The notes: generated by a model from the letters alone, not told the origin. A stretch of 64,000 nucleotides of DNA from a virus (IMGVR_UViG_3300046779_001735:1-64000); one strand, 5' to 3'. Positions 1,322-11,811 are shown, counted from the first letter of the stretch. Numbers and translations: made by a program.

Positions 1322-2410
1322 ATGTTAGATGCCATCAAACCATTACTAGATAGCGGCCTGATCAATGAAGATGTCAGCAAAGAACTCAACGAAGCTTGGG
1401 AATCAAAGCTGTCAGAAGCCAAAGAACAGGTACGTGCAGAACTTCGCGAGGAGTTTGCACAACGCTATGAACACGACAAGAGCGTGATGGTTGAAGCCCT
1501 GGATCGCATGGTAACCGAAGGTCTAAACGCAGAGATCGAAGGCGTTGCAGCTGAAAAGCGTCAACTAGCTGAAGATCGTGTGAAGTTCCAAACCAAGATG
1601 AAAGAAAATGCCACTAAGTTTAACGACTTCATGGTAACCAAATTGGCAGAAGAAATCGCAGAAGTGCGTAGAGATCGCAAGGCTCACAACACAGGACTAG
1701 AAAAATTAGAAACCTTTGTGGTGCGTGCTCTTGCAGAAGAAATCATGGAATTCGCGCAAGACAAACAAAAGGTTGTTGAAACCCAAGTACGTTTAGTACG
1801 CGATGCCCGTGTAAAACTTGAATCATTGAAAGCACGTTTTGTAAAAGAAAGTGCTGCTAAGATGGGTCAAGCGGTATCCAAGCATCTCAAGGCTGAACTC
1901 AACCAGCTACGTGAAGATATCCAAGTTGCACGAGAAAACAACTTTGGCCGTCGCATCTTTGAAGCCTATGCGGCTGAATTTGGTGCTACACATCTCAACG
2001 AAAATGCAGAAGTGCGCAAGCTCAATGTATTGATCGCTGATAAAAATGCCAAGCTGAGCAAGGCTGTACAAGTTGCAGAGCAAGCTCGTGTGGTTGTGGA
2101 AAGCAAAGAACGTGAAATTCGTATGATTCGTGAAAACAACGAACGTGCCAACACCATGGCAGACCTGTTGGCTCCTCTAAACAAAGAGAAGCAAGAGATC
2201 ATGCGTAATTTACTTGAAAGCGTACAAACAGCTCGTCTGAAGAACGCTTTTGAAAAGTATCTACCAGCGGTGCTCGAGAACCGATCTGTGAAAGCTCAGA
2301 AAGTGATCACAGAGTCGATTAGCGAAGTGACTGGGGATAAAACTACCTCGCCTCAACAAGATGAAGATCGCAGCAATGTGATTGACATCAAGAGATTGGC
2401 AGGATTATAA
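1322..2410 (+). CDS. gp22: Prohead scaffold protein (gp22-like)
   Basis: E/K/A-rich coiled-coil protein between protease and capsid genes; AAGGAG Shine-Dalgarno. Confidence 0.85.
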   Translation: MLDAIKPLLDSGLINEDVSKELNEAWESKLSEAKEQVRAELREEFAQRYEHDKSVMVEALDRMVTEGLNAEIEGVAAEKRQLAEDRVKFQTKMKENATKFNDFMVTKLAEEIAEVRRDRKAHNTGLEKLETFVVRALAEEIMEFAQDKQKVVETQVRLVRDARVKLESLKARFVKESAAKMGQAVSKHLKAELNQLREDIQVARENNFGRRIFEAYAAEFGATHLNENAEVRKLNVLIADKNAKLSKAVQVAEQARVVVESKEREIRMIRENNERANTMADLLAPLNKEKQEIMRNLLESVQTARLKNAFEKYLPAVLENRSVKAQKVITESISEVTGDKTTSPQQDEDRSNVIDIKRLAGL

Positions 2411-2426
2411 GCAAAAGGAGACTATT

Positions 2427-3638
2427 ATGTCAGAGCAATTACTCGAAAACCGCTGGGACGAGACCAAAGAAGCCCTAATGGAAGGCCTTAAAGGTTCACG
2501 TCGCAGCACCATGGGTGTTATCCTTGAGAACACTCGCAAGTATCTGAAAGAGAATGCAACTGCTGGCAGCACTGCTGCTGGTAATGTCGCTACTCTTAAC
2601 CGTGTCATTCTTCCAGTGATTCGTCGTGTGATGCCAACTGTGATCGCTAACGAACTGGTAGGCGTTCAGCCAATGACCGGTCCAGTGGGCCAAATCCACA
2701 CTCTGCGTGTACGCTATGCAAGCACAATGAATGACACTTCAGCTGCTGCTACTTCAACCATTGCTGGTGAAGAAGCACTGAGTCCATTCAAGATTGCAAC
2801 AGCTTACTCGTCAGCAAGCACAGTAAGTGCCGGCGTTCCTGGTGCAAGCCAGACTCGCTACACTGGTGCTGACACTTCAATTCTTGAAGGTTCTGGTGGT
2901 CGTAACATCAGCGTTCAGATCCTGAAACAAGCTGTTGAAGCCAAGACCCGCAAGTTACAAGCTCGCTGGACTTTTGAAGCAGCTCAAGACGCACAAGCAA
3001 TGCATGGCATTGACGTAGAAGCAGAAATCATGGCAGCTTTGGCTCAAGAAATCACAGCTGAAATTGATCAAGAAATCCTGTTGAGCCTGCGTACTTTGGC
3101 AGCAACTGAGTTCACATACAACCAAGCTACTGTATCTGGTACAGCTACATTTGTTGGTGACGAACACGCCGCTTTGGCAGTTCTGATCAATCGTGTTGCT
3201 AACCTGATCGCTCAGCGTACACGTCGTGGCGCTGGTAACTGGGCAGTTGTGTCACCTGCATCGTTGACTGTGCTGCAAAGCGCAACAACTTCAGCATTTG
3301 CACGTACAACTGAAGGCACATTTGAAGCACCTACAAACACTAAGTTTGTTGGTACATTAAACGGCGCAATGCGTGTGTTTGTTGACAGCTATGCCAGCGA
3401 CGCACAAGCAGTTCTAGTTGGTTACAAGGGTTCAAGCGAGGCTGATGCAGCCGCGTTCTACTGCCCTTATATTCCATTGATGAGCTCTGGCGTTGTTCTG
3501 GATCCAACTACTTTTGAACCAGTAGTTAGCTTCATGACTCGTTATGGTTACATCGAACTTACCAACACAGCAAGCAGCTTCGGTAACGCAGCTGACTATC
3601 TGGGTGAGATCGCTGTTTCGAACTTGTCGTTCAGCTAA
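2427..3638 (+). CDS. gp23: Major capsid protein (gp23-like)
   Basis: VIRRVMP, GVQPMTGPVGQI, EAKTRKLQARWTFEAAQD, AFYCPYIPL, FMTRYG motifs; AAGGAG before ATG 2427. Confidence 0.97.
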   Translation: MSEQLLENRWDETKEALMEGLKGSRRSTMGVILENTRKYLKENATAGSTAAGNVATLNRVILPVIRRVMPTVIANELVGVQPMTGPVGQIHTLRVRYASTMNDTSAAATSTIAGEEALSPFKIATAYSSASTVSAGVPGASQTRYTGADTSILEGSGGRNISVQILKQAVEAKTRKLQARWTFEAAQDAQAMHGIDVEAEIMAALAQEITAEIDQEILLSLRTLAATEFTYNQATVSGTATFVGDEHAALAVLINRVANLIAQRTRRGAGNWAVVSPASLTVLQSATTSAFARTTEGTFEAPTNTKFVGTLNGAMRVFVDSYASDAQAVLVGYKGSSEADAAAFYCPYIPLMSSGVVLDPTTFEPVVSFMTRYGYIELTNTASSFGNAADYLGEIAVSNLSFS

Positions 3639-3666
3639 TCAAAAACTCTCAGGGATGGGAAAAACT

Positions 3667-3690
3667 ACCCCGCTTCGGCGGGGTTTTTCT
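3667..3690 (+). terminator. Rho-independent terminator with UUCG tetraloop
   Basis: ACCCCGC-TTCG-GCGGGGT followed by a T run, directly after the capsid gene. Confidence 0.9.
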
Positions 3691-3696
3691 TTGGTG

Positions 3697-3702
3697 TAAA
3701 TA
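3697..3702 (+). promoter_or_regulatory. T4-type late promoter core TAAATA (representative copy of a recurring motif)
   Basis: The same motif precedes genes at 5805, 7258, 14321, 26372, 29657, 35217, 37644, 40970, 43617, 44095, 52757, 54331, 55756, 60848 (+) and 33979-33984, 37585-37590 (-). T4 late consensus is TATAAATA. Confidence 0.8.
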
Positions 3703-3706
3703 TGCA

Positions 3707-4843
3707 ATGTTTTTGACCTTGCGACACAGACCGGATCTTAGATTGGTGCCAAGTTCGGTGGGCGCGATATCTGAATTTTTTCCAGACACCAAACTGTTGA
3801 TTTTGACTCTGCAGGACCTTAATGGAGTGAGTCGCATCACTTGGTTTGATCTGTACAATCGCATCATTAAGTGTGTACACGAGCACAAGATAGAGTTAAT
3901 TGTGATAGATCGCACTGGCGAGCCCAAGATCTTGGACGAACCTGAACACTATGGACCCAATGACATCACCATAGCAGATTCACTTAGATCTGTGTGCGCC
4001 ACGGTAATTGTAACCGATGACTATACCTATTACAATCAGTGTCATGAGCACGTGGTCTGCTTTCCCTATAATATTTGGCTACTAGCATCACGCAGTGTGG
4101 ACCGGTACGAAAACTTTCACGGGAATGGGTACGACACAGGTCTGCCAAAAATTCGTTCCTTAATGTGTTTGAATAGAAAGTTGCATTGGCACAGGATTTT
4201 TCTATACCTGGAACTTCGCAAACGTGACTGGTTACATCGAGTGGATTTCAGTTTTATACTTGGCAATGATCGAATGGACACAGATTTCCTTCTGCGCGAT
4301 CTAACTCACCAAGAAATTGACCAAATGCATCTAGCCAGCAATGAACTGCCAATTGTGTTGTCCGAAGAACAGGTTAGTGACACCGGCAACTTTACATCCA
4401 ACGGCAGTACACAGCATTGGACTAGTGTGAATCTTCCGGTTTACAATCGCACAGCCATGAATCTAGTTACTGAAACCAGTTTGAATCACGGAATTTTGCT
4501 CACAGAAAAAGCAGTGAAGCCTATCATGGCCTATCAAATTCCTGTGATACTAGCAGCACCCGGAGCCAATGCATGGCTACAGAGTCTTGGTTTTGACCTA
4601 TTTGCAGACTTTGTGCCCTGGGCACATTGGGACAGCGCAAAAGATCAACGACAAAAAATTCTCAGTATGGTGAACTGGCTAGACACTGTGATGCAGGATC
4701 CAGAACAAATAGTTTCATATCACAGACAGAGTCATCACAGACTACGGGCAAACAAGCAACTATTTCACAGCGCAGAGTTTGTCAGACAACTTGAACAGCC
4801 TATTAGAGCCTATGCTCAGTCCATTTCGTCCACTTCTACATAG
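3707..4843 (+). CDS. Hypothetical protein, possibly glycosyltransferase-like
   Basis: CLNRK..WHR, NLVTET..LTEKAVKP and LGFDLF motifs resemble GT-B/GT10-like phage proteins. Ends in TAG. Confidence 0.55.
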   Translation: MFLTLRHRPDLRLVPSSVGAISEFFPDTKLLILTLQDLNGVSRITWFDLYNRIIKCVHEHKIELIVIDRTGEPKILDEPEHYGPNDITIADSLRSVCATVIVTDDYTYYNQCHEHVVCFPYNIWLLASRSVDRYENFHGNGYDTGLPKIRSLMCLNRKLHWHRIFLYLELRKRDWLHRVDFSFILGNDRMDTDFLLRDLTHQEIDQMHLASNELPIVLSEEQVSDTGNFTSNGSTQHWTSVNLPVYNRTAMNLVTETSLNHGILLTEKAVKPIMAYQIPVILAAPGANAWLQSLGFDLFADFVPWAHWDSAKDQRQKILSMVNWLDTVMQDPEQIVSYHRQSHHRLRANKQLFHSAEFVRQLEQPIRAYAQSISSTST

Positions 4844-5382
4844 TCATCCTCGTCAATATAGGTACCCGGGGCATCATAAGACTTGTAGTAGGCTTCGTTT
4901 GGTTTCATAATCCTAAAAGCATTTTCGTATTTCAAAGCAGCAAAGGTTGCTTCATCTTTTTTAAGCAGATCGCACACTACAAAGCTGGTGCCACAGTCGC
5001 CTCTTACGTTTTTAAAAGGTGAATGTTTGAACTCGTTTTTGCAAAGAGCGTCATGAAACTTGCTTCCATAATTGAAAATTATCCTGGTAATACCCAGCTT
5101 TTGATTACGCAGTCTAATCTTGTCCACAACAGATAAGTTTGAGATTTCAGCTTCGTTCACATCGTTGATGGTCAACAAACATTCTCGGAACTTGATGCTG
5201 CCTTTGGTATGGGAGTTGTCTGGAGTTTCTTTGGTACTCCATGGGATACTAGCAGTGACGTGGTCTACGTAAAAAGTTTCACCGTGTGTTTTTACGACCC
5301 ACATTGGGATGGTTTCGTCTTCTAGGTGTTTCTTGTTAAAATGAAACACTAGGTCTTTACATGCGTATTCAATCTATGACAT
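4816..5382 (-). CDS. Hypothetical protein with an in-frame TAG at codon 3 (MS*IEYACKDLVFHFNKK..., 188 codons); candidate amber read-through gene
   Basis: Minus strand reads AAGGA-AAATAAA-ATG TCA TAG ATT GAA TAC GCA TGT AAA GAC CTA GTG, in frame with the 177-aa ORF 4816-5349. Confidence 0.75.
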
Positions 5383-5383
5383 T

Positions 5384-5560
5384 TTATTTTCCTTTAAATT
5401 TACTACATATCAGTTCAAAATCTCTTTGACGCCCTTGAACTTGTCCGTAACTTGCAGTTGGATAACGTTCTCTATACTCTGTTTTTTGTTGTTCTAAACA
5501 GTCTTCATATGGGCGCGAACACCCTGCTACTAGAGTCAAACACATTAAGACGTACCGCAT
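5384..5560 (-). CDS. Small predicted lipoprotein, 58 aa (MRYVLMCLTLVAGCSRPYEDCLEQQKTEYRERYPTASYGQVQGRQRDFELICSKFKGK)
   Basis: AGGA before the ATG; basic residue, hydrophobic stretch and lipobox VAG-C. Stop is 1 nt before the next ATG. Too short for the ORF track. Confidence 0.7.
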   Translation of the reverse strand: MRYVLMCLTLVAGCSRPYEDCLEQQKTEYRERYPTASYGQVQGRQRDFELICSKFKGK

Positions 5561-5575: not shown

Positions 5576-5672
5576 TGACGGTTTTTTTGTGTCAGGAAAC
5601 CGTCAAACCCCGTGAGCGCAGCCCATCCCGTTTTCGCGTCAGCGGAGCCGGAATATGGATACGGGTCCGGCT
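5576..5672 (-). ncRNA. Structured RNA: three helices plus two potential loop-loop pseudoknots, directly 3' of the tRNA
   Basis: P1 AGCCGGA/TCCGGCT; P2 CCG(C)TGACGC/GCG(C)TCACGG; P3 TGACGGTTT/AAACCGTCA. The P2 loop segment CGGGATGGG is complementary to the P3 loop (TCCTG) and the P1 loop (TCCAT). Confidence 0.65.
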
Positions 5673-5678
5673 TAAAAC

Positions 5679-5751
5679 TGGTGCACTAGATGGGAATCGA
5701 ACCCACTACTTAGAGTTTTAGAGGCTCCGGGCCGACCGTCGGCACTAGTGC
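5679..5751 (-). tRNA. Amber suppressor tRNA (anticodon CUA), 73 nt, encoded CCA, short D-arm
   Basis: GCACTAG-T-GCCG ACGGT CGGC-CC-GGAGC CTCTAAA ACTCT-AAGTA-GTGGG TTCGATT CCCAT-CTAGTGC-A-CCA. 7-bp acceptor stem, canonical T-loop, anticodon loop CU-CUA-AA. Confidence 0.88.
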
Positions 5752-5758
5752 ATACGTA

Positions 5759-5787
5759 ATTATGCCAGAAATCTAAACACAGTTCAA
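5759..5787 (-). promoter_or_regulatory. Sigma70-like promoter for the tRNA operon
   Basis: Minus strand TTGAAC-17 nt-CATAAT, ending 7 nt before tRNA G1. Confidence 0.6.
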
Positions 5788-5815
5788 ATAATTTGGAAAA
5801 CCACTAAATACTATT

Positions 5816-5866
5816 AACGCATCCTGCGTTTTATGCGGATACCACCGCGTAGTGGCTGAAACCCAC
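5816..5866 (+). promoter_or_regulatory. Structured 5' leader with three tandem hairpins after a late promoter
   Basis: AACGCA/TGCGTT, TATGCGG/CCGCGTA and GTGG/CCAC lie between TAAATA (5805) and the AAGGAG Shine-Dalgarno. Confidence 0.5.
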
Positions 5867-5892
5867 ATCGGACTTCTTTAAGGAGAAAACAA

Positions 5893-6639
5893 ATGGGACG
5901 TCCTCTCAAAATTCAAAAATATTCAACAAATTCTGGTGTTGGTTCACCAGGTGCAGCAGTAGGCATTGACATTGGTTTTCCTAACTTTGGATCGTTAACT
6001 GATCCAGTATACAACACTAATCCTGAAACTCTAAGTGCAGCAGATTACCTTGGCGTTGTGGGTGGTCTTCGCACCACAGCAACATCAGCTACGAATCCCG
6101 TGATCAAGTGTATCGTAAACATTGCAAACAGTTACACAGGGGTAGACGATGGTGTAATTCTGCGTCAAAAAGGGTCACACAAATTTCTAGTGGCTACAAA
6201 CACAGCTATTGATCCTGCCAATGCATTGACCGGTGTGAGTGTGCGTATTGCTACTCTAGGCGACACAAACTGGAATGCCATGGGCGCACCAGTGGGTGCA
6301 GCAGTGGGAACTATCTTTTTGGTAACAGCAGCCGCAGGTGCCGGAACCACAGGTACTTGTCAGGAAGTTGGAGTTTGTGTGCTAGATAATGATGCAACCC
6401 CAGCCGCTGGTCTTATGGCCATTGGATTCTCAGTAGGCGATTCAACTATCACTTACATCAGCAAATTAACCAACAAGTGGTTACTTGACTGGACTGGTGG
6501 CAACGGATACACACAATCTGACATTACCGGTGATGTTCGTTACGTGTCCAACTTCTTCACTGATGAAGGAACTGTTATCAAGTCTGGTACTGCTGATACT
6601 ACAGTTATCCCAGGTCAACTTGAAAAATGGACTAGTTAA
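5893..6639 (+). CDS. Hypothetical late (probably virion) protein
   Basis: Late promoter and strong Shine-Dalgarno; G/A/T-rich; MGRPLK start and RQKGSHKFLV motif. Confidence 0.7.
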   Translation: MGRPLKIQKYSTNSGVGSPGAAVGIDIGFPNFGSLTDPVYNTNPETLSAADYLGVVGGLRTTATSATNPVIKCIVNIANSYTGVDDGVILRQKGSHKFLVATNTAIDPANALTGVSVRIATLGDTNWNAMGAPVGAAVGTIFLVTAAAGAGTTGTCQEVGVCVLDNDATPAAGLMAIGFSVGDSTITYISKLTNKWLLDWTGGNGYTQSDITGDVRYVSNFFTDEGTVIKSGTADTTVIPGQLEKWTS

Positions 6640-6692: not shown

Positions 6693-7280
6693 ATGACTAC
6701 AGCATTTGCATTAGCCAACGGAGTAAGCCGACAGGGACTGGATTTGCCCTGGATACATCATTATGGACCTATCTACGGTTGCAATGCTCTTTACAAAGAT
6801 TTTGAACCTGACGTTCTAGTGGCCACTGATGCGCCAATCAGCGGACGCATACAGGATTCTGGATATAGTCAACGTAGGATATTCTATACTCGCAGATGCT
6901 TGCCCAATTCTGGTGCTAGACAAATACCTAAAAAGTACTATGGAAATAGTTCAGGCCCAGTGGCTGCTGCCCTAGCTGCTATTGATGGGCATAGTCATGT
7001 GTATCTACTGGGTTATGATCTTGGGCCAGGGGCTGATGGTAAATTTAATAATGTGTATGCTGGTACAGAATTCTACAAAGCGCAGGGCACTCCGCCCACT
7101 TTCACAGGTAATTGGATCAAGCAGATTAGCACTGTAATACAGGATTTTCCTAAGGTGCGCTGGACTCGTGTTTACGGCGCAACTACTATGAAGCACGCGG
7201 AACTTGACAAACTAAGCAATCTAGAACATGTGGAAATGGCACTGTTTCTAGCACGTATAAATACACAAAAGGAAGCTTAG
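6693..7280 (+). CDS. MptE/DUF115-like nucleotide-binding protein
   Basis: ANGVSR, YGCNALY, PDVLVATD, SSGPVA, VYLLGYD motifs. Ends in TAG directly abutting the next ATG. Confidence 0.65.
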   Translation: MTTAFALANGVSRQGLDLPWIHHYGPIYGCNALYKDFEPDVLVATDAPISGRIQDSGYSQRRIFYTRRCLPNSGARQIPKKYYGNSSGPVAAALAAIDGHSHVYLLGYDLGPGADGKFNNVYAGTEFYKAQGTPPTFTGNWIKQISTVIQDFPKVRWTRVYGATTMKHAELDKLSNLEHVEMALFLARINTQKEA

Positions 7281-8705
7281 ATGTCAACTTACAAACGTGT
7301 CAGCGGTGACTACAACATTGTTTCTATTAACCCTACAGACAATGTCAGCATCACAACCAATCAAGTAACCGTTTCAGGCAACATCACATCGACTCAAAAT
7401 CTAACGATAGGTAACGTTGTTGCCAGTGGGAATATATCCACTGCTAACCTTACTGCGTCTGGTACTGTATCGTTCCCCACTGCTAATATTTCTGCTAACA
7501 ATATCACCAGTAACAACATCACTTCAGTGGGTAATTTTGTGACCACTGGTGTGTTTATTGGTGACGGGTCAGGCTTAACTAACATTCCTGCGGGCGCAAA
7601 CGCAGTAGGCAACAGAATACAATTTGGTCTTAGTCGAGTTGACATTCAAAATGTCAGTGGCAATATTAATGTCAATGTAGGTGGTACCAGCAATGTATTG
7701 TTGTTTACCACAGAGGGCGCAACACTGCCGGGCAACATCGTGACCGGCAATATTCTCACTGATGGATATTTCTTTGCAAATGGATTACCATTTGTTAGTG
7801 GCGGCACAGTTACCTGGGATGCTCAGACCACACCACCGCCTTCGCCTACAGCAGGTGATTTTTGGTTCAATACAACCAATGGTATTCTATATCAATATGT
7901 AAACGACGGTGACAGTGATCAATGGGTTGACATGAGTGGAATATCTACTCCACCTGCCTCGGCCAGTACCATAGCCAACACAGTGGTTCAGCGAGACACC
8001 AATGGATCGTTTACAGCCAATGCAGTGGCAACTACCACTGTGAGTGCCACTGGCAATATTTCCGCCACTTACTTCTTGGGCAACGGTAGTCTGTTGACAG
8101 GTATAGCTGGTGCTCCATCCGCTATTACCAACGGCACCAGTGCAGTGAACATACCCAGTGTAAATGGTGTAACATTCGCAAACGTTGCAGGCACCAATGT
8201 GGCACAGTTTGATAGTGCTGGCCTTAGAGTGGGTAACATCACAAATCTTGGTGCTAACAGCACAGGCAACATTGGCAACGCTTCAAATTACTTTAACAGA
8301 ATTTTTGCAACTTCAACTTCAGCTCTATATGCTGACCTTGCAGAAAACTACACAGCAGATGCTGATTACGAACCCGGAATCGTGGTAAGCTTTGGTGGTG
8401 ATAAAGAAATCACTATAAGTCAAGGCACACATGACACAGCAGTGGCCGGAGTGGTCAGTGCTAATCCAAGTTATCTTATGAATTCTGGAATTAATGGAAC
8501 ACCAGTGGCTCTCACTGGCAAAGTTCGCTGCCAGGTGCGTGGTCCTGTGGACAAAGGCTCATTGGTGGTGTCAAGCGAAATACCAGGTGTGGCTGAAAAG
8601 CTCAATCACAGCTTGTTCCGCCCTGGCTGCGTGATTGGAAAAAGTTTAATGCAAATTCAAGACAATTCAATACAAATGATTGACATAGTGGTAGGGAGGT
8701 TCTAA
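7281..8705 (+). CDS. Tail-fibre-like protein with C-terminal intramolecular-chaperone (peptidase G2-like) domain
   Basis: GN-rich repeats; SALYADLAENY..PG.VVSFGG..GVVSANP..VALTGKV..IGKSL..VVGR. Confidence 0.75.
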   Translation: MSTYKRVSGDYNIVSINPTDNVSITTNQVTVSGNITSTQNLTIGNVVASGNISTANLTASGTVSFPTANISANNITSNNITSVGNFVTTGVFIGDGSGLTNIPAGANAVGNRIQFGLSRVDIQNVSGNINVNVGGTSNVLLFTTEGATLPGNIVTGNILTDGYFFANGLPFVSGGTVTWDAQTTPPPSPTAGDFWFNTTNGILYQYVNDGDSDQWVDMSGISTPPASASTIANTVVQRDTNGSFTANAVATTTVSATGNISATYFLGNGSLLTGIAGAPSAITNGTSAVNIPSVNGVTFANVAGTNVAQFDSAGLRVGNITNLGANSTGNIGNASNYFNRIFATSTSALYADLAENYTADADYEPGIVVSFGGDKEITISQGTHDTAVAGVVSANPSYLMNSGINGTPVALTGKVRCQVRGPVDKGSLVVSSEIPGVAEKLNHSLFRPGCVIGKSLMQIQDNSIQMIDIVVGRF

Positions 8706-9787: not shown

Positions 9788-11811
9788 TGATTATTGATGG
9801 GATCAACGATCCAGAAGAAATTAGAAGAATTCTAGGCGACAATCCTCATCCACAGGCATTGCAAGAATTCACTCAACAGTACATTGGTATGAATCAGCCT
9901 TTGGTTATTGAACTAGGCCAAGAGTATCCTTATACAGTAACTTTGCATCGCGATATTAATCAGGAAAATTTTTACGACGAAATGGAAAGCGCAGGCAGTC
10001 GTGGCTATGTGCCTGAACGAGTAGTTGAGTGTTCTCAACGCATGCCCATGTGTCGTAGCACAGAGTACCTTTTGACTCCAGAAGAAGCAGCGGGTCTTGA
10101 ACTTGATCCTAGAGTCATGGCCGTGGAAATTGATCCACAACATCATGGTATCCAAGCTAGACCTCTAGTAAGTCAATACAGTGCAGGATGGGATAAAACT
10201 GGTAATCTTGATCCTATATTTAAAAATTGGGGGCTGTTCCGGCAGTGGTTCCGTCGCCAGATTCCAAATTGGGGCGGCGGTGGGCAACAAGATCCCACAC
10301 AGGCTGGCACAATTACTTTGACCAGCACCGGAAAAAATGTTGATGTGGTGGTGTTTGATGGCAACATTGATCCTGCACATCCAGAATATCAAAGAAATGC
10401 AGATGGCACAGGCGGCACTCGAGTGAACCAATTCAACTGGTGGAGTCTTAATCCCCAGGTCACAGGACAAGCAGCAGGAACCTACAACTACACCGCAGGT
10501 GTTGCTGGAAATAATGGTCACGGTTTTCATGTGGCTGGAATCTTTGCAGGTAACACTCAAGGTTGGGCCCGTGATTCTACTATCTATAATATTTCTCCCT
10601 ACGGCGAACAAACCAATGGTACATCTACACCAAGTCTCACGCAGTTAGTGAATTATATTAGATACTGGCACAACAATATCAAAACTGTGAATCCAGAAAC
10701 CGGGGTCAAAAACCCCACTGTGGTCAACATGAGTTTTGGTCTTTTTGGTAATCAATTTGCTAGAGAAAACGGCGGTCGAATTAACGTTAACCAACTATAT
10801 TACCGCGGTGTCACTCAAAACTATCCAGCATCAGCTCCTCCAGGTCAATCAAGTCTCCAAGTAGCCTACAATGGTAACTGGACTCCTCAACAGTGGTACA
10901 ATGCAGGTGTTCAGCTGTATAGTGGATATATTGATGCGTATGGTGTGATTTTGTATTTTTATACAGCTCAAGACACCGCGGCAGAACAGGCAATTATTGA
11001 CGGTGTTAACGAAGGTATTATTTGGTGTGCAGCAGCAGGTAATCAGTGGAACGAAGCTGGATTTTTCAGCGATCATCCTAATTACGTTAATTATGTAAAT
11101 CAGGCCTATGCACAGATTGGCAGTGTAGTTTTATATCGGGCTAGTTATCACAATAGAATGCCAGTACCTGCATCAGCAGAGTCAGGTCGCGGTACTGCTA
11201 ACTTTAAAACTATCTGTGTGGTTGGCAATATTAGTGTACAAGCTAACCAGTCCTTGAGTCAAACCAGTTCTGCAGGCAACAAAGTCACGGTGTGGGCACC
11301 TGGTGAAAATATCATGAGTGCTTATAACGCAGCTGGTATTCCTGATCCAAGAAATGCTGCATTCTATATTACCAAACTCACAGGCACGAGCATGGCCAGT
11401 CCGCAGATCGCAGGTATCATAGCTTGCATGGCAGAACTGTATCCGGACAAGCGCATGATGGATTACATTTCTTGGATCAATGCCTATGCCAACTTAAACA
11501 ATGTGCCTGATCTTGGCATACCTTTACCACCTGGGCCTGTTAGTAATTTTGGCCTACGCGAGGCTCCCAATGTATTTGGATTGTACTACAACGATCGCCC
11601 TATTAACGGTAACACATGGCCTCAAAAACGCTGGTGGATACGTCCTACTCAGGGTCTAGCTTATCCTCGACAAACCATAAGACGCAGAAGCACTGTGGTT
11701 TCAACTCCTGCAGCTCCGGCAGCTGACAGAGTGTTCACAGCCAGCGTGCGAACAGACAGCACGGCAGGGCCAATTATTGCTACTACCGGAAACATAACAA
11801 TAACAGGGTAA
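9787..11811 (+). CDS. Subtilisin-like (S8) serine peptidase, probably virion-associated
   Basis: Catalytic set VDVVVFDG, HGFHVAG, AAAGN, GTSMASP. Confidence 0.9.
   Translation: MIIDGINDPEEIRRILGDNPHPQALQEFTQQYIGMNQPLVIELGQEYPYTVTLHRDINQENFYDEMESAGSRGYVPERVVECSQRMPMCRSTEYLLTPEEAAGLELDPRVMAVEIDPQHHGIQARPLVSQYSAGWDKTGNLDPIFKNWGLFRQWFRRQIPNWGGGGQQDPTQAGTITLTSTGKNVDVVVFDGNIDPAHPEYQRNADGTGGTRVNQFNWWSLNPQVTGQAAGTYNYTAGVAGNNGHGFHVAGIFAGNTQGWARDSTIYNISPYGEQTNGTSTPSLTQLVNYIRYWHNNIKTVNPETGVKNPTVVNMSFGLFGNQFARENGGRINVNQLYYRGVTQNYPASAPPGQSSLQVAYNGNWTPQQWYNAGVQLYSGYIDAYGVILYFYTAQDTAAEQAIIDGVNEGIIWCAAAGNQWNEAGFFSDHPNYVNYVNQAYAQIGSVVLYRASYHNRMPVPASAESGRGTANFKTICVVGNISVQANQSLSQTSSAGNKVTVWAPGENIMSAYNAAGIPDPRNAAFYITKLTGTSMASPQIAGIIACMAELYPDKRMMDYISWINAYANLNNVPDLGIPLPPGPVSNFGLREAPNVFGLYYNDRPINGNTWPQKRWWIRPTQGLAYPRQTIRRRSTVVSTPAAPAADRVFTASVRTDSTAGPIIATTGNITITG

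Follow-up and report, generated by a model that had tools for sequence, protein, structure and literature searches.

We analysed a stretch of 64,000 nucleotides of viral DNA (IMGVR_UViG_3300046779_001735, positions 1-64000; hereafter the window), which forms the first 64 kb of a 156,620-bp IMG/VR virus record. On its minus strand lies a transfer RNA (tRNA) gene with the amber anticodon CUA, upstream of a conserved gene (hereafter the client gene) that carries an in-frame TAG at its third codon. The record was rated 45% complete by CheckV, so its source is probably a jumbo phage, and the searches reported below for the whole record cover these 156 kb, or 45% of the genome. The features of the locus, which include a Shine-Dalgarno sequence (SD) and a small open reading frame (ORF), are as follows.

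5759..5787, minus strand: sigma-70-like promoter TTGAAC-17 nt-(TG)CATAAT, identified by its match to the consensus only
5679..5751, minus strand: amber-suppressor tRNA(CUA) of 73 nt with its CCA encoded; the anticodon is at 5721-5719 and A73 at 5682
5751-5745, minus strand: 5' side of the acceptor stem GCACUAG/CUAGUGC, read from the sequence
5744, minus strand: linker U, the single nucleotide between the acceptor and D stems
5729..5744, minus strand: compact D region of 16 nt, U/GCCG/ACGGU/CGGC/CC (1+4+5+4+2), with the D-loop GG kept
5743-5740 and 5734-5731, minus strand: D stem GCCG/CGGC, enclosing the D loop ACGGU (5739-5735)
5730-5729, minus strand: CC between the D arm and the anticodon stem
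5728-5724 and 5716-5712, minus strand: anticodon stem GGAGC/ACUCU, with a C31.A39 mismatch (5724, 5716)
5723-5717, minus strand: anticodon loop CUCUAAA, with CUA at 5721-5719
minus strand: variable loop AAGUA (5 nt) and T arm GUGGG-UUCGAUU-CCCAU, with a canonical T loop
5681-5679, minus strand: encoded CCA
5576..5672, minus strand: structured leader RNA of ~97 nt, three hairpins and a pseudoknot, recognised from conservation and covariation
5384..5560, minus strand: small ORF of 58 amino acids with a lipoprotein signal (lipobox LVAGC), read from the sequence
4816..5382, minus strand: putative amber-gated client gene, SD AAAGGAAAA, ATG at 5382-5380, TCA, TAG at 5376-5374, 185 sense codons and TGA

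The tRNA(CUA) has a standard cloverleaf framework, with acceptor and T stems of 7 and 5 bp, the latter closed by a GTTCGANN loop, and a 7-nt anticodon loop containing U33. A canonical D region has two linker nucleotides (8 and 9), a stem of 4 bp with a loop of 7-11 nt, and a single nucleotide at position 26, a layout from which that of the window tRNA departs. Since the GG of the D loop and the canonical T loop are both kept, the compact D arm presumably retains its elbow contacts. The -10 box of the promoter ends 7 nt before position 1 of the tRNA, and both the box and its spacing are conserved in two close relatives (L034 and L037, phages 83-98% identical to that of the window). The tRNA is probably transcribed from its own promoter. 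T5752, which occupies position -1 of the tRNA and lies 7 nt past the promoter-like -10 box, corresponds to a U in many relatives. We considered a bacterial initiator tRNA, because the TAG of the client gene occupies the position of the ATG in homologues. The window tRNA does not fit this class: initiators have a C1xA72 mismatch and an anticodon stem that ends at its base in three G-C pairs, whereas here G1-C72 is paired and the stem is GGAGC/ACUCU with C.A at 31.39.

We gathered a family of related tRNAs by pattern scans of IMG/VR and metagenomes, and added loci fetched later. The 17-nt anticodon arm was found to be identical in 32 viral contigs, each with a full tRNA, and the T arm and acceptor were identical in 10 further contigs, so that the window tRNA is no chance resemblance; a loose D-arm pattern returned mainly chance matches in coding sequence. 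A distant BLAST match led to the Xanthomonas jumbo phage Xoo-sp13 (MN047793), whose canonical tRNA(CUA) (68.2 bits in Rfam) has an anticodon arm identical to that of the window, including the C.A mismatch. One match to both the anticodon arm and the T arm was found in a bacterial genome collection, on contig DJWL01000096.1 of the metagenome-assembled genome (MAG) of Flavobacteriaceae bacterium UBA6231 (L243). This contig bears 7 tRNAs in an array, the CUA suppressor among them, has no client gene and points to no clear host, and is probably phage DNA binned into the MAG.

In total, we extracted 70 distinct tRNAs, comprising 67 CUA suppressors of one family, a CUG copy in L034, a tRNA-Gln(CUG) in L028, and a divergent CUA tRNA in L018, which was excluded from the family alignment. 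The alignment accordingly contains 68 distinct sequences, the 67 suppressors and the L034 copy. In it, 92.1% of cells are paired in the cloverleaf, versus 78% in shuffles and 34-43% in slid registers, and changes on both sides were observed in 19 of the 21 pairs. A typical member has an acceptor of the form GCG..CGC, A73, an encoded CCA and the loop YUCUAAA. The window tRNA fits this family, with its CUA in a YUCUAAA loop, G1-C72, A73 and encoded CCA, and scores 74.8 bits against a family covariance model that includes its own sequence. The mismatch that a previous sequence-only reading had seen to close the anticodon stem is C31.A39, and of the 67 suppressors only one, with A-U, has a Watson-Crick pair at this position, the other 66 having C.A (54), A.C (7), U.G (3) or C.C (2). 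The two CUG tRNAs, counted apart, have C-G (the L034 copy) and U.G (the canonical tRNA-Gln of L028); across the alignment, including the L034 copy, the position is unpaired in 62 of 68 rows.

D regions within the family span 16 to 20 nt. The 16-nt layout 1+4+5+4+2 was identified in six distinct sequences with three unrelated stem types, GCCG/CGGC in the window, CCGC/GCGG in L038 and CUCA/UGAG in L009 and L235; all 4 pairs of the compact arm change on both sides, and pairing is 100%. Four more sequences have a 17-nt layout of 1+5+5+5+1. Because the 16-nt layout recurs with three stem sequences, in which all pairs covary, the compact D arm is, on this comparative evidence, a selected variant and not a product of decay. 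It is therefore very improbable that the window contains a decaying pseudo-tRNA, once a canonical suppressor and then disabled by the loss of 2 nt at positions 8-9. The tRNA is indeed 2 nt shorter than its closest relatives with 18-nt D regions (the L004 group, AGU-ACCG-ACGGU-CGGU-UA), and it escapes ARAGORN. However, L034 and L037 share its 16-nt architecture, which recurs with fully compensated, different stems in L038 and in L009/L235. Every other helix is intact, and strong purifying selection acts in the same genomes on the TAG-bearing client gene. The sequence-only reading had held that failure of homologues to conserve CUA or the short D arm would mark a pseudo-tRNA, and we found both to be conserved.

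The same reading had described the element as an amber tRNA of partly tRNA-Pyl-like architecture. An amber suppressor with a non-canonical, compact D arm is indeed what we find, and the individual features listed are present, both those likened to tRNA-Pyl (the 1-nt linker, the D arm of 4 bp and 5 nt, and the CUCUAAA loop) and those that are not (the canonical T loop, A73 and the 5-nt variable loop); the Pyl-like framing itself does not hold. The likeness consists of the CUA anticodon, the CUCUAAA loop, the 1-nt acceptor/D linker U5744 and the 5-nt D loop ACGGU. In contrast to tRNA-Pyl, which has a 6-bp anticodon stem, a 3-nt variable loop, a G73 discriminator and has lost G18G19 and TpsiC, the window tRNA has an anticodon stem of five positions including the C.A mismatch (a sixth would be C5729.A5711), a 5-nt variable loop, A73, a D loop that keeps GG, and a canonical UUCGAUU T loop. 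No match to PylS (TIGR02367) was found in the 156-kb record, which represents 45% of the genome. The CUCUAAA loop is common to the whole tRNA(CUA) family, most of whose members have ordinary D arms, and is the loop of efficient engineered amber suppressors in general. Some relatives are labelled as tRNA-Pyl by ARAGORN and GenBank, but these labels reflect the anticodon alone. Thus, the resemblance is convergent D-region compaction, limited to the sizes of the linker and D loop, and does not indicate membership; a relative of tRNA-Pyl, or an orthogonal tRNA with a non-canonical amino acid, is extremely unlikely.

The client gene lies on the same strand as the tRNA, and its start reads AAAGGAAAA-TAAA-ATG TCA TAG ATT GAA TAC, with a well-placed SD. 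The in-frame TAG is codon 3, and is located 303 nt downstream of the tRNA 3' end. An SD-ATG-(1-8 codons)-TAG leader, followed by the conserved motif I-E-Y/F-(A/G)-C-K-D..FHFNKK, was identified first in 17 of 17 loci, and then in all 78 homologous loci that could be assessed for the leader, the latter from a dedicated IMG/VR search in which 302 contigs were found. Comparison of the window with L037 gave a ratio of non-synonymous to synonymous substitution (dN/dS) of 0.07 at a dS of 1.26, indicating strong purifying selection, and synonymous variation is found in the codons right after the TAG, indicating that these are translated. We found no conserved alternative start after the TAG of the client, as the first ATG, GTG or TTG is at least 7 codons downstream and the codon after the TAG is ATT, ATC or AAC across the loci of the family. 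The SD stays at a fixed distance from the ATG although leaders range from 1 to 8 codons, and so it cannot belong to the post-TAG codon.

We identified 1457 relatives of the client in a large protein database; those with 'Q' at the amber position are code 15 calls made from TAG. The JGI gene calls are truncated, starting at a downstream GTG or ATG, and the ORF list of the window has only a GTG-started ORF of 177 amino acids. In the predicted structure, the N-terminal 92 residues form a beta-rich domain (predicted local distance difference test score 94.5; best PDB Z 3.6 by VIA-align), and residues 97-173 a ferredoxin-like (ACT/RRM-like) domain (best Z 5.7 by VIA-align), followed by an acidic tail; these likenesses are of common arrangements only. 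The protein has no Pfam family and a weak PHROG match, and Foldseek against the PDB returned nothing at E <= 0.001.

Amber leaders were additionally identified in other genes. In loci L001-L033, a search for SD-ATG, at most 10 codons, a stop, and an ORF of at least 70 codons found TAG as the stop in 16 cases, TGA in 4 and TAA in 1; the pattern is thus specific to TAG, even though this is the rarest stop among the plus-strand ORFs of the window. Amber leaders also precede genes for PTH2-like peptidyl-tRNA hydrolases (L013, L024, L028, L031 and L245-L277), of which those in L013 and L031 score 33-35 bits versus the PTH2 cut-off of 23, and those in L024 and L028 are homologous by BLASTP. In this family 22 of 35 loci, many of them on contigs of 200-480 kb, have the leader, in the form SD-ATG-(1-2 codons, sometimes more)-TAG-[IV]K.GDKLYVITR and with TAG always as the stop, while the 13 remaining, more distant members have a plain ATG start. 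The two families are also connected through a database protein (P0180) in which a PTH2-like domain is fused to the N-terminal domain of the client. Both Agrobacterium phage Atu_ph07 and Sinorhizobium phage Phosso have a gene for this N-terminal domain, and two genes away from it stands another gene of matching size and position, for which the annotation is peptidyl-tRNA hydrolase in Phosso and hypothetical protein in Atu_ph07. The recurrent association of the client with PTH2-like enzymes suggests that its role may be tied to acylated tRNA or translation.

Two cultured phages carry similar arrangements. Rhizobium phage RHph_I1_18 has an unannotated 83-codon ORF (L237 1478-1814; MN988519.1 ~10911-11247), homologous to the client N-terminal domain, which reads ATG AGT GAG TTC ATG TAG AAC, with the TAG at codon 6. 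This ORF lies 7 nt upstream of a 'tRNA-Pyl(cta)' in the GenBank annotation, and a canonical tRNA-Gln(ctg) is located 1.1 kb upstream. In Xoo-sp13, the gene Xoosp13_327 (L242 904-1800; MN047793.1 243120-244019) encodes a fusion of HD-like (phrog_14850) and PTH2-like domains, and is preceded by an in-frame SD-ATG AAG AAG TAG, four codons before the annotated ATG.

Linkage between tRNA and amber gene was widespread. A family tRNA (at least 66 bits with the covariance model) lies on the same strand, at most 2.5 kb from the amber gene, in 64 of 79 loci, and four of the 15 loci without a linked tRNA are contig edges. In most of the linked loci the tRNA is upstream of the amber gene, and in some it is directly downstream.

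The sister phage L034 (IMGVR_UViG_3300042402_002481, a single 5.6-kb metagenomic contig) has lost the client gene. Its flanks are 97.6% and 91.4% identical to those of the window, and at ~3520-3890 the amber gene is precisely deleted, from the ATG to just before the stop, while the promoter, tRNA body, leader RNA, lipoprotein gene and SD are kept. The tRNA itself differs at exactly four positions of the anticodon arm and nowhere else (A36G, A39G, U43C and A38G); of these changes, A36G converts the anticodon to CUG (Gln), A39G the C.A mismatch to C-G, and U43C a G.U to G-C. To see whether sense tRNA-Gln(CUG) genes with this body form a family, we scanned IMG/VR for the L034 anticodon arm; L034 alone was returned as a tRNA, indicating that the sense form is derived. 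The joint loss of the gene and conversion of the tRNA would be expected if the tRNA served to decode that single codon, and if its body is recognised as a tRNA-Gln. This is strong but, coming from one contig, not conclusive evidence.

The phage uses the standard genetic code, as code 11 ORFs cover 90% of the window. Recoding of TAG was rejected, since TAG readthrough yields no specific gain in the window, in the 156-kb record or in the loci of relatives, and no such recoding was seen in those relatives' loci that carry tRNA(CUA). Taken together, the comparisons show a compact tRNA of conserved architecture, an amber codon that is itself conserved, linkage between the tRNA and the client gene, and, in L034, loss of the one with conversion of the other. 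We consider it likely, from these sequence comparisons, that the tRNA at 5751..5679 is a functional phage amber suppressor, a compact-D-arm variant of a widespread family carried by standard-code phages, and that it forms a cassette with the amber-leader gene, whose protein would be made only with the phage's own charged suppressor.

We infer the aminoacylation of the tRNA, its glutamine identity, the readthrough and the purpose of the gate as follows. The tRNA would be transcribed from the TTGAAC-17-CATAAT promoter with its CCA already encoded, and would be charged with glutamine by a host synthetase, for which our best guess is glutaminyl-tRNA synthetase (GlnRS). The charged tRNA would then compete with RF1 at the UAG-A of client codon 3. 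Ribosomes that initiate at the well-placed SD-ATG would stop after Met-Ser if the tRNA is lacking, and would produce the 188-residue client protein if it is present. Such a gate could serve the control of dosage or timing, a feedback between tRNA-directed hydrolases and a reporter tRNA, or anti-defence.

Regarding the amino acid, we could not find genes for GlnRS or glutamyl-tRNA synthetase (GluRS), a class-I release factor or PTH2 in the 156-kb record. With no synthetase, release factor or PylS found in these 156 kb, charging by a host enzyme is the default. The sequence-only reading had noted that no synthetase or pyl gene lies in the window, which our searches uphold and extend to the full record. 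It had proposed either a host lysyl-tRNA synthetase (LysRS) or GlnRS, or a phage enzyme encoded elsewhere, and of these options the host enzyme is the one retained, with GlnRS gaining support from the CUG copy in L034, while no phage enzyme was found in the 156 kb.

On balance, and with modest confidence, we favour glutamine as the residue inserted, via host GlnRS. This is suggested by the CUG sister copy in L034 with the same tRNA body, by the D arm GCCA-AG(C/U)GG..-GGC of several family members, which resembles that of the canonical phage tRNA-Gln in L028, and by the Gln codons that often lie directly 5' of the client TAG. Among amber reassignments in phages with a code unlike that of their host, only TAG-to-Gln has been reported, and glutaminylation of amber suppressors has been reported in E. 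coli (bioRxiv 10.1101/2021.08.26.457843). Recognition of bacterial tRNA-Gln, a substrate of GlnRS or GatCAB, involves C34, U35 and a purine at 37 in the anticodon loop, together with G10. Of these, the window tRNA carries C34, U35 and A37, and its D stem begins with G, but position 36 is A, where L034 has G.

As the sequence-only reading had pointed out, the typical Gln elements U1-A72 and G73 are absent from the window tRNA, which has G1-C72 and A73. A functional suppressor of the adjacent gene that inserts a residue other than glutamine, with Lys via LysRS as the main candidate or a phage synthetase in the unsequenced 55% of the genome, is thus a less probable but credible alternative. It draws on A73 and U35, which are LysRS elements, on the difference from the canonical bacterial tRNA-Gln ends (U1-A72, G73) of L028 and RHph_I1_18, and on the 45% completeness of the genome. 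Many engineered A73 amber suppressors are charged with Lys or Gln in studies of E. coli. However, the same body reads CAG in L034, where a Lys-accepting body with CUG would miscode, and the Gln-like D arms of several members, the frequent Gln codons beside the TAG and the lack of a synthetase in the 156 kb all argue against it.

Several observations weigh against the cassette as we propose it. ARAGORN made zero tRNA calls in the window, tRNA(CUA) included; the Rfam tRNA model (RF00005) gave a marginal 32.5 bits versus a gathering score of 29, with the D arm skipped; and the minimum-energy structure of the unmodified tRNA is not the cloverleaf. Further clients or a synthetase could lie elsewhere in the genome, beyond the 45% covered by the record. 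Since the classical E. coli GlnRS acceptor-end elements are absent, the Gln assignment itself rests mainly on one sister sequence, the single contig L034. Distant homologues of the client have a plain ATG exactly at the TAG position, leaving some probability to a short upstream ORF with re-initiation. The HD-like genes of L013 and Xoo-sp13 have a conserved in-frame ATG 4-6 codons after the TAG, and the Xoo-sp13 gene could have either an amber leader or an upstream mini-ORF, because its annotated ATG is conserved in a homologue.

These last points would fit an independent mini-ORF, ATG-X-TAG, with a 185-codon body that re-initiates (e.g. at AUU) and a tRNA that serves some other purpose, such as global TAG readthrough, host takeover, or a relic or precursor of TAG recoding. 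GenBank annotates the downstream ATG in Xoo-sp13, and standard-code phages have been proposed to gain suppressors before recoding (Borges et al., bioRxiv 10.1101/2021.08.26.457843). We nevertheless regard this alternative as unlikely. The stop is TAG in 78 of 78 and 22 of 22 amber-led loci of the two families and never TAA or TGA, though TAA dominates stop usage. The leader has 1-8 codons at a fixed SD-ATG spacing, and the post-TAG codon (ATT, ATC or AAC) is not a regular start. The tRNA is tightly linked on the same strand, no surplus of in-frame TAG is found elsewhere in the 156 kb, and the gene and the CUA anticodon are lost together in L034.

Between the tRNA and the client gene of the proposed cassette we identified two further elements. 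Across more than 20 loci, the leader RNA retains 90-99% identity where the proteins have only ~70%, and it shows covariation, including a change of CCCGU:ACGGG to CCUGU:ACAGG in the pseudoknot. The loop of its last hairpin holds UUUCCU, complementary to the downstream SD AGGAAA, and in several loci the element is found immediately 5' of the SD of the amber gene, away from the tRNA. No Rfam match was found for 5576..5672. An HDV-like (hepatitis delta virus-like) or theta ribozyme seems unlikely, both for this reason and because in several loci the RNA travels with the 5' side of the amber gene and not with the tRNA 3' end. The 58-amino-acid lipoprotein-like ORF, whose stop lies 1 nt before the ATG of the amber gene, has no Pfam or PHROG match, and is present in L034 and L037 in a diverged, fast-evolving form.

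A broader interpretation, which we offer only tentatively, is that standard-code phages, among them cultured Rhizobium and Xanthomonas phages and many jumbo phages, carry a small regulon, consisting of a dedicated amber suppressor and a handful of amber-leader genes with UAG in the first 2-9 codons. The clients would then be PTH2-like hydrolases and a fusible beta-domain partner, and the suppressor might act as a sentinel or feedback element. Enzyme output could be coupled in this way to the charged state of a reporter tRNA and to competition by RF1, with the 31.39 pair and the leader RNA perhaps tuning the circuit.

The cassette may be compared with several known systems. The tRNA(CUA) of Xoo-sp13, likewise a standard-code jumbo phage, shares the anticodon arm with C31.A39 and a similar T arm, and differs from the window tRNA in its canonical D arm and its score of 68 bits in Rfam. 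For the related Xanthomonas phage XacN1, also a standard-code jumbo phage, the targets of its two CUA suppressors were sought, and not found, among TAGs at gene ends (PMC5852040), whereas the targets that we propose have the TAG at the gene start. Code-15 phages (crAss-like, Lak and other gut phages; bioRxiv 10.1101/2021.08.26.457843, PMC10879173) resemble the present case in their phage tRNA(CUA), in its presumed charging with Gln by the host, and in the dependence of phage gene expression on a decoder supplied by the phage. In contrast to these, the phage studied here uses the standard code, with one amber gene in 156 kb that is physically linked to the tRNA; the amber is always within the first 2-9 codons, CCA is encoded, and both hosts and habitat differ, the phages being from freshwater and soil and including jumbo phages.

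Classical and engineered E. coli suppressors (su7 tRNA-Trp(CUA), supE) have the same CUCUAAA loop (the 'extended anticodon') and are often charged by GlnRS, but the family described here is a natural phage one with a near-universal non-Watson-Crick 31.39 pair (66/67), which the engineered optimum does not include. UAG followed by A is known from classical work as a suppression-favouring context, and the client has UAG-A. A formal likeness also exists with the bar-type minigenes of phage lambda, which combine a strong SD with a 2-9-codon ORF and a stop, and here the second amber-led family is PTH2-like; a link of amber leaders to peptidyl-tRNA drop-off is, however, speculation. Unlike bar minigenes, the amber leaders always end in UAG, a long conserved in-frame ORF continues beyond them, and the cognate suppressor is encoded alongside.

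Suppressor tRNAs recur in phages without an alternative code, and for their targets we propose a testable answer, namely genes with an amber codon at the very start, which gene callers truncate or miss. Functional compact phage tRNAs additionally escape tRNA finders, which matters for the 60% of TAG-recoded phages that lack a detected suppressor (Borges et al., bioRxiv 10.1101/2021.08.26.457843). The tRNA and leader together would constitute a naturally evolved, seemingly portable 'amber gate' of relevance to genetic-code engineering, and cultured carriers of the cassette (RHph_I1_18 and possibly Xoo-sp13) make experiments possible.

Finally, we noted further features in the surroundings of the locus. 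The only other tRNA of the record is a tRNA-Met, and the region near the tRNA is annotated with a major head protein (2382-3638) and tail-fibre-like proteins. At 7278-7283 on the plus strand, the TAG of ORF 6693-7280 abuts the in-frame ATG of ORF 7281-8705 (tail-fibre-like). Fusion of the two by readthrough was considered and set aside, as the junction probably represents ordinary stop-start coupling, given that an SD precedes the ATG and that L034, although it lacks a suppressor, has the identical junction. In divergent orientation to the tRNA promoter, at 5815-5895 on the plus strand, we identified a freshwater-2 RNA (RF02980; 69.9 bits versus a gathering score of 49.9 in Rfam), a motif of unknown function that here lies in the structural-gene region of the phage; its 3' end holds the SD and ATG of ORF 5893-6639, which encodes a protein of 248 amino acids of no family.

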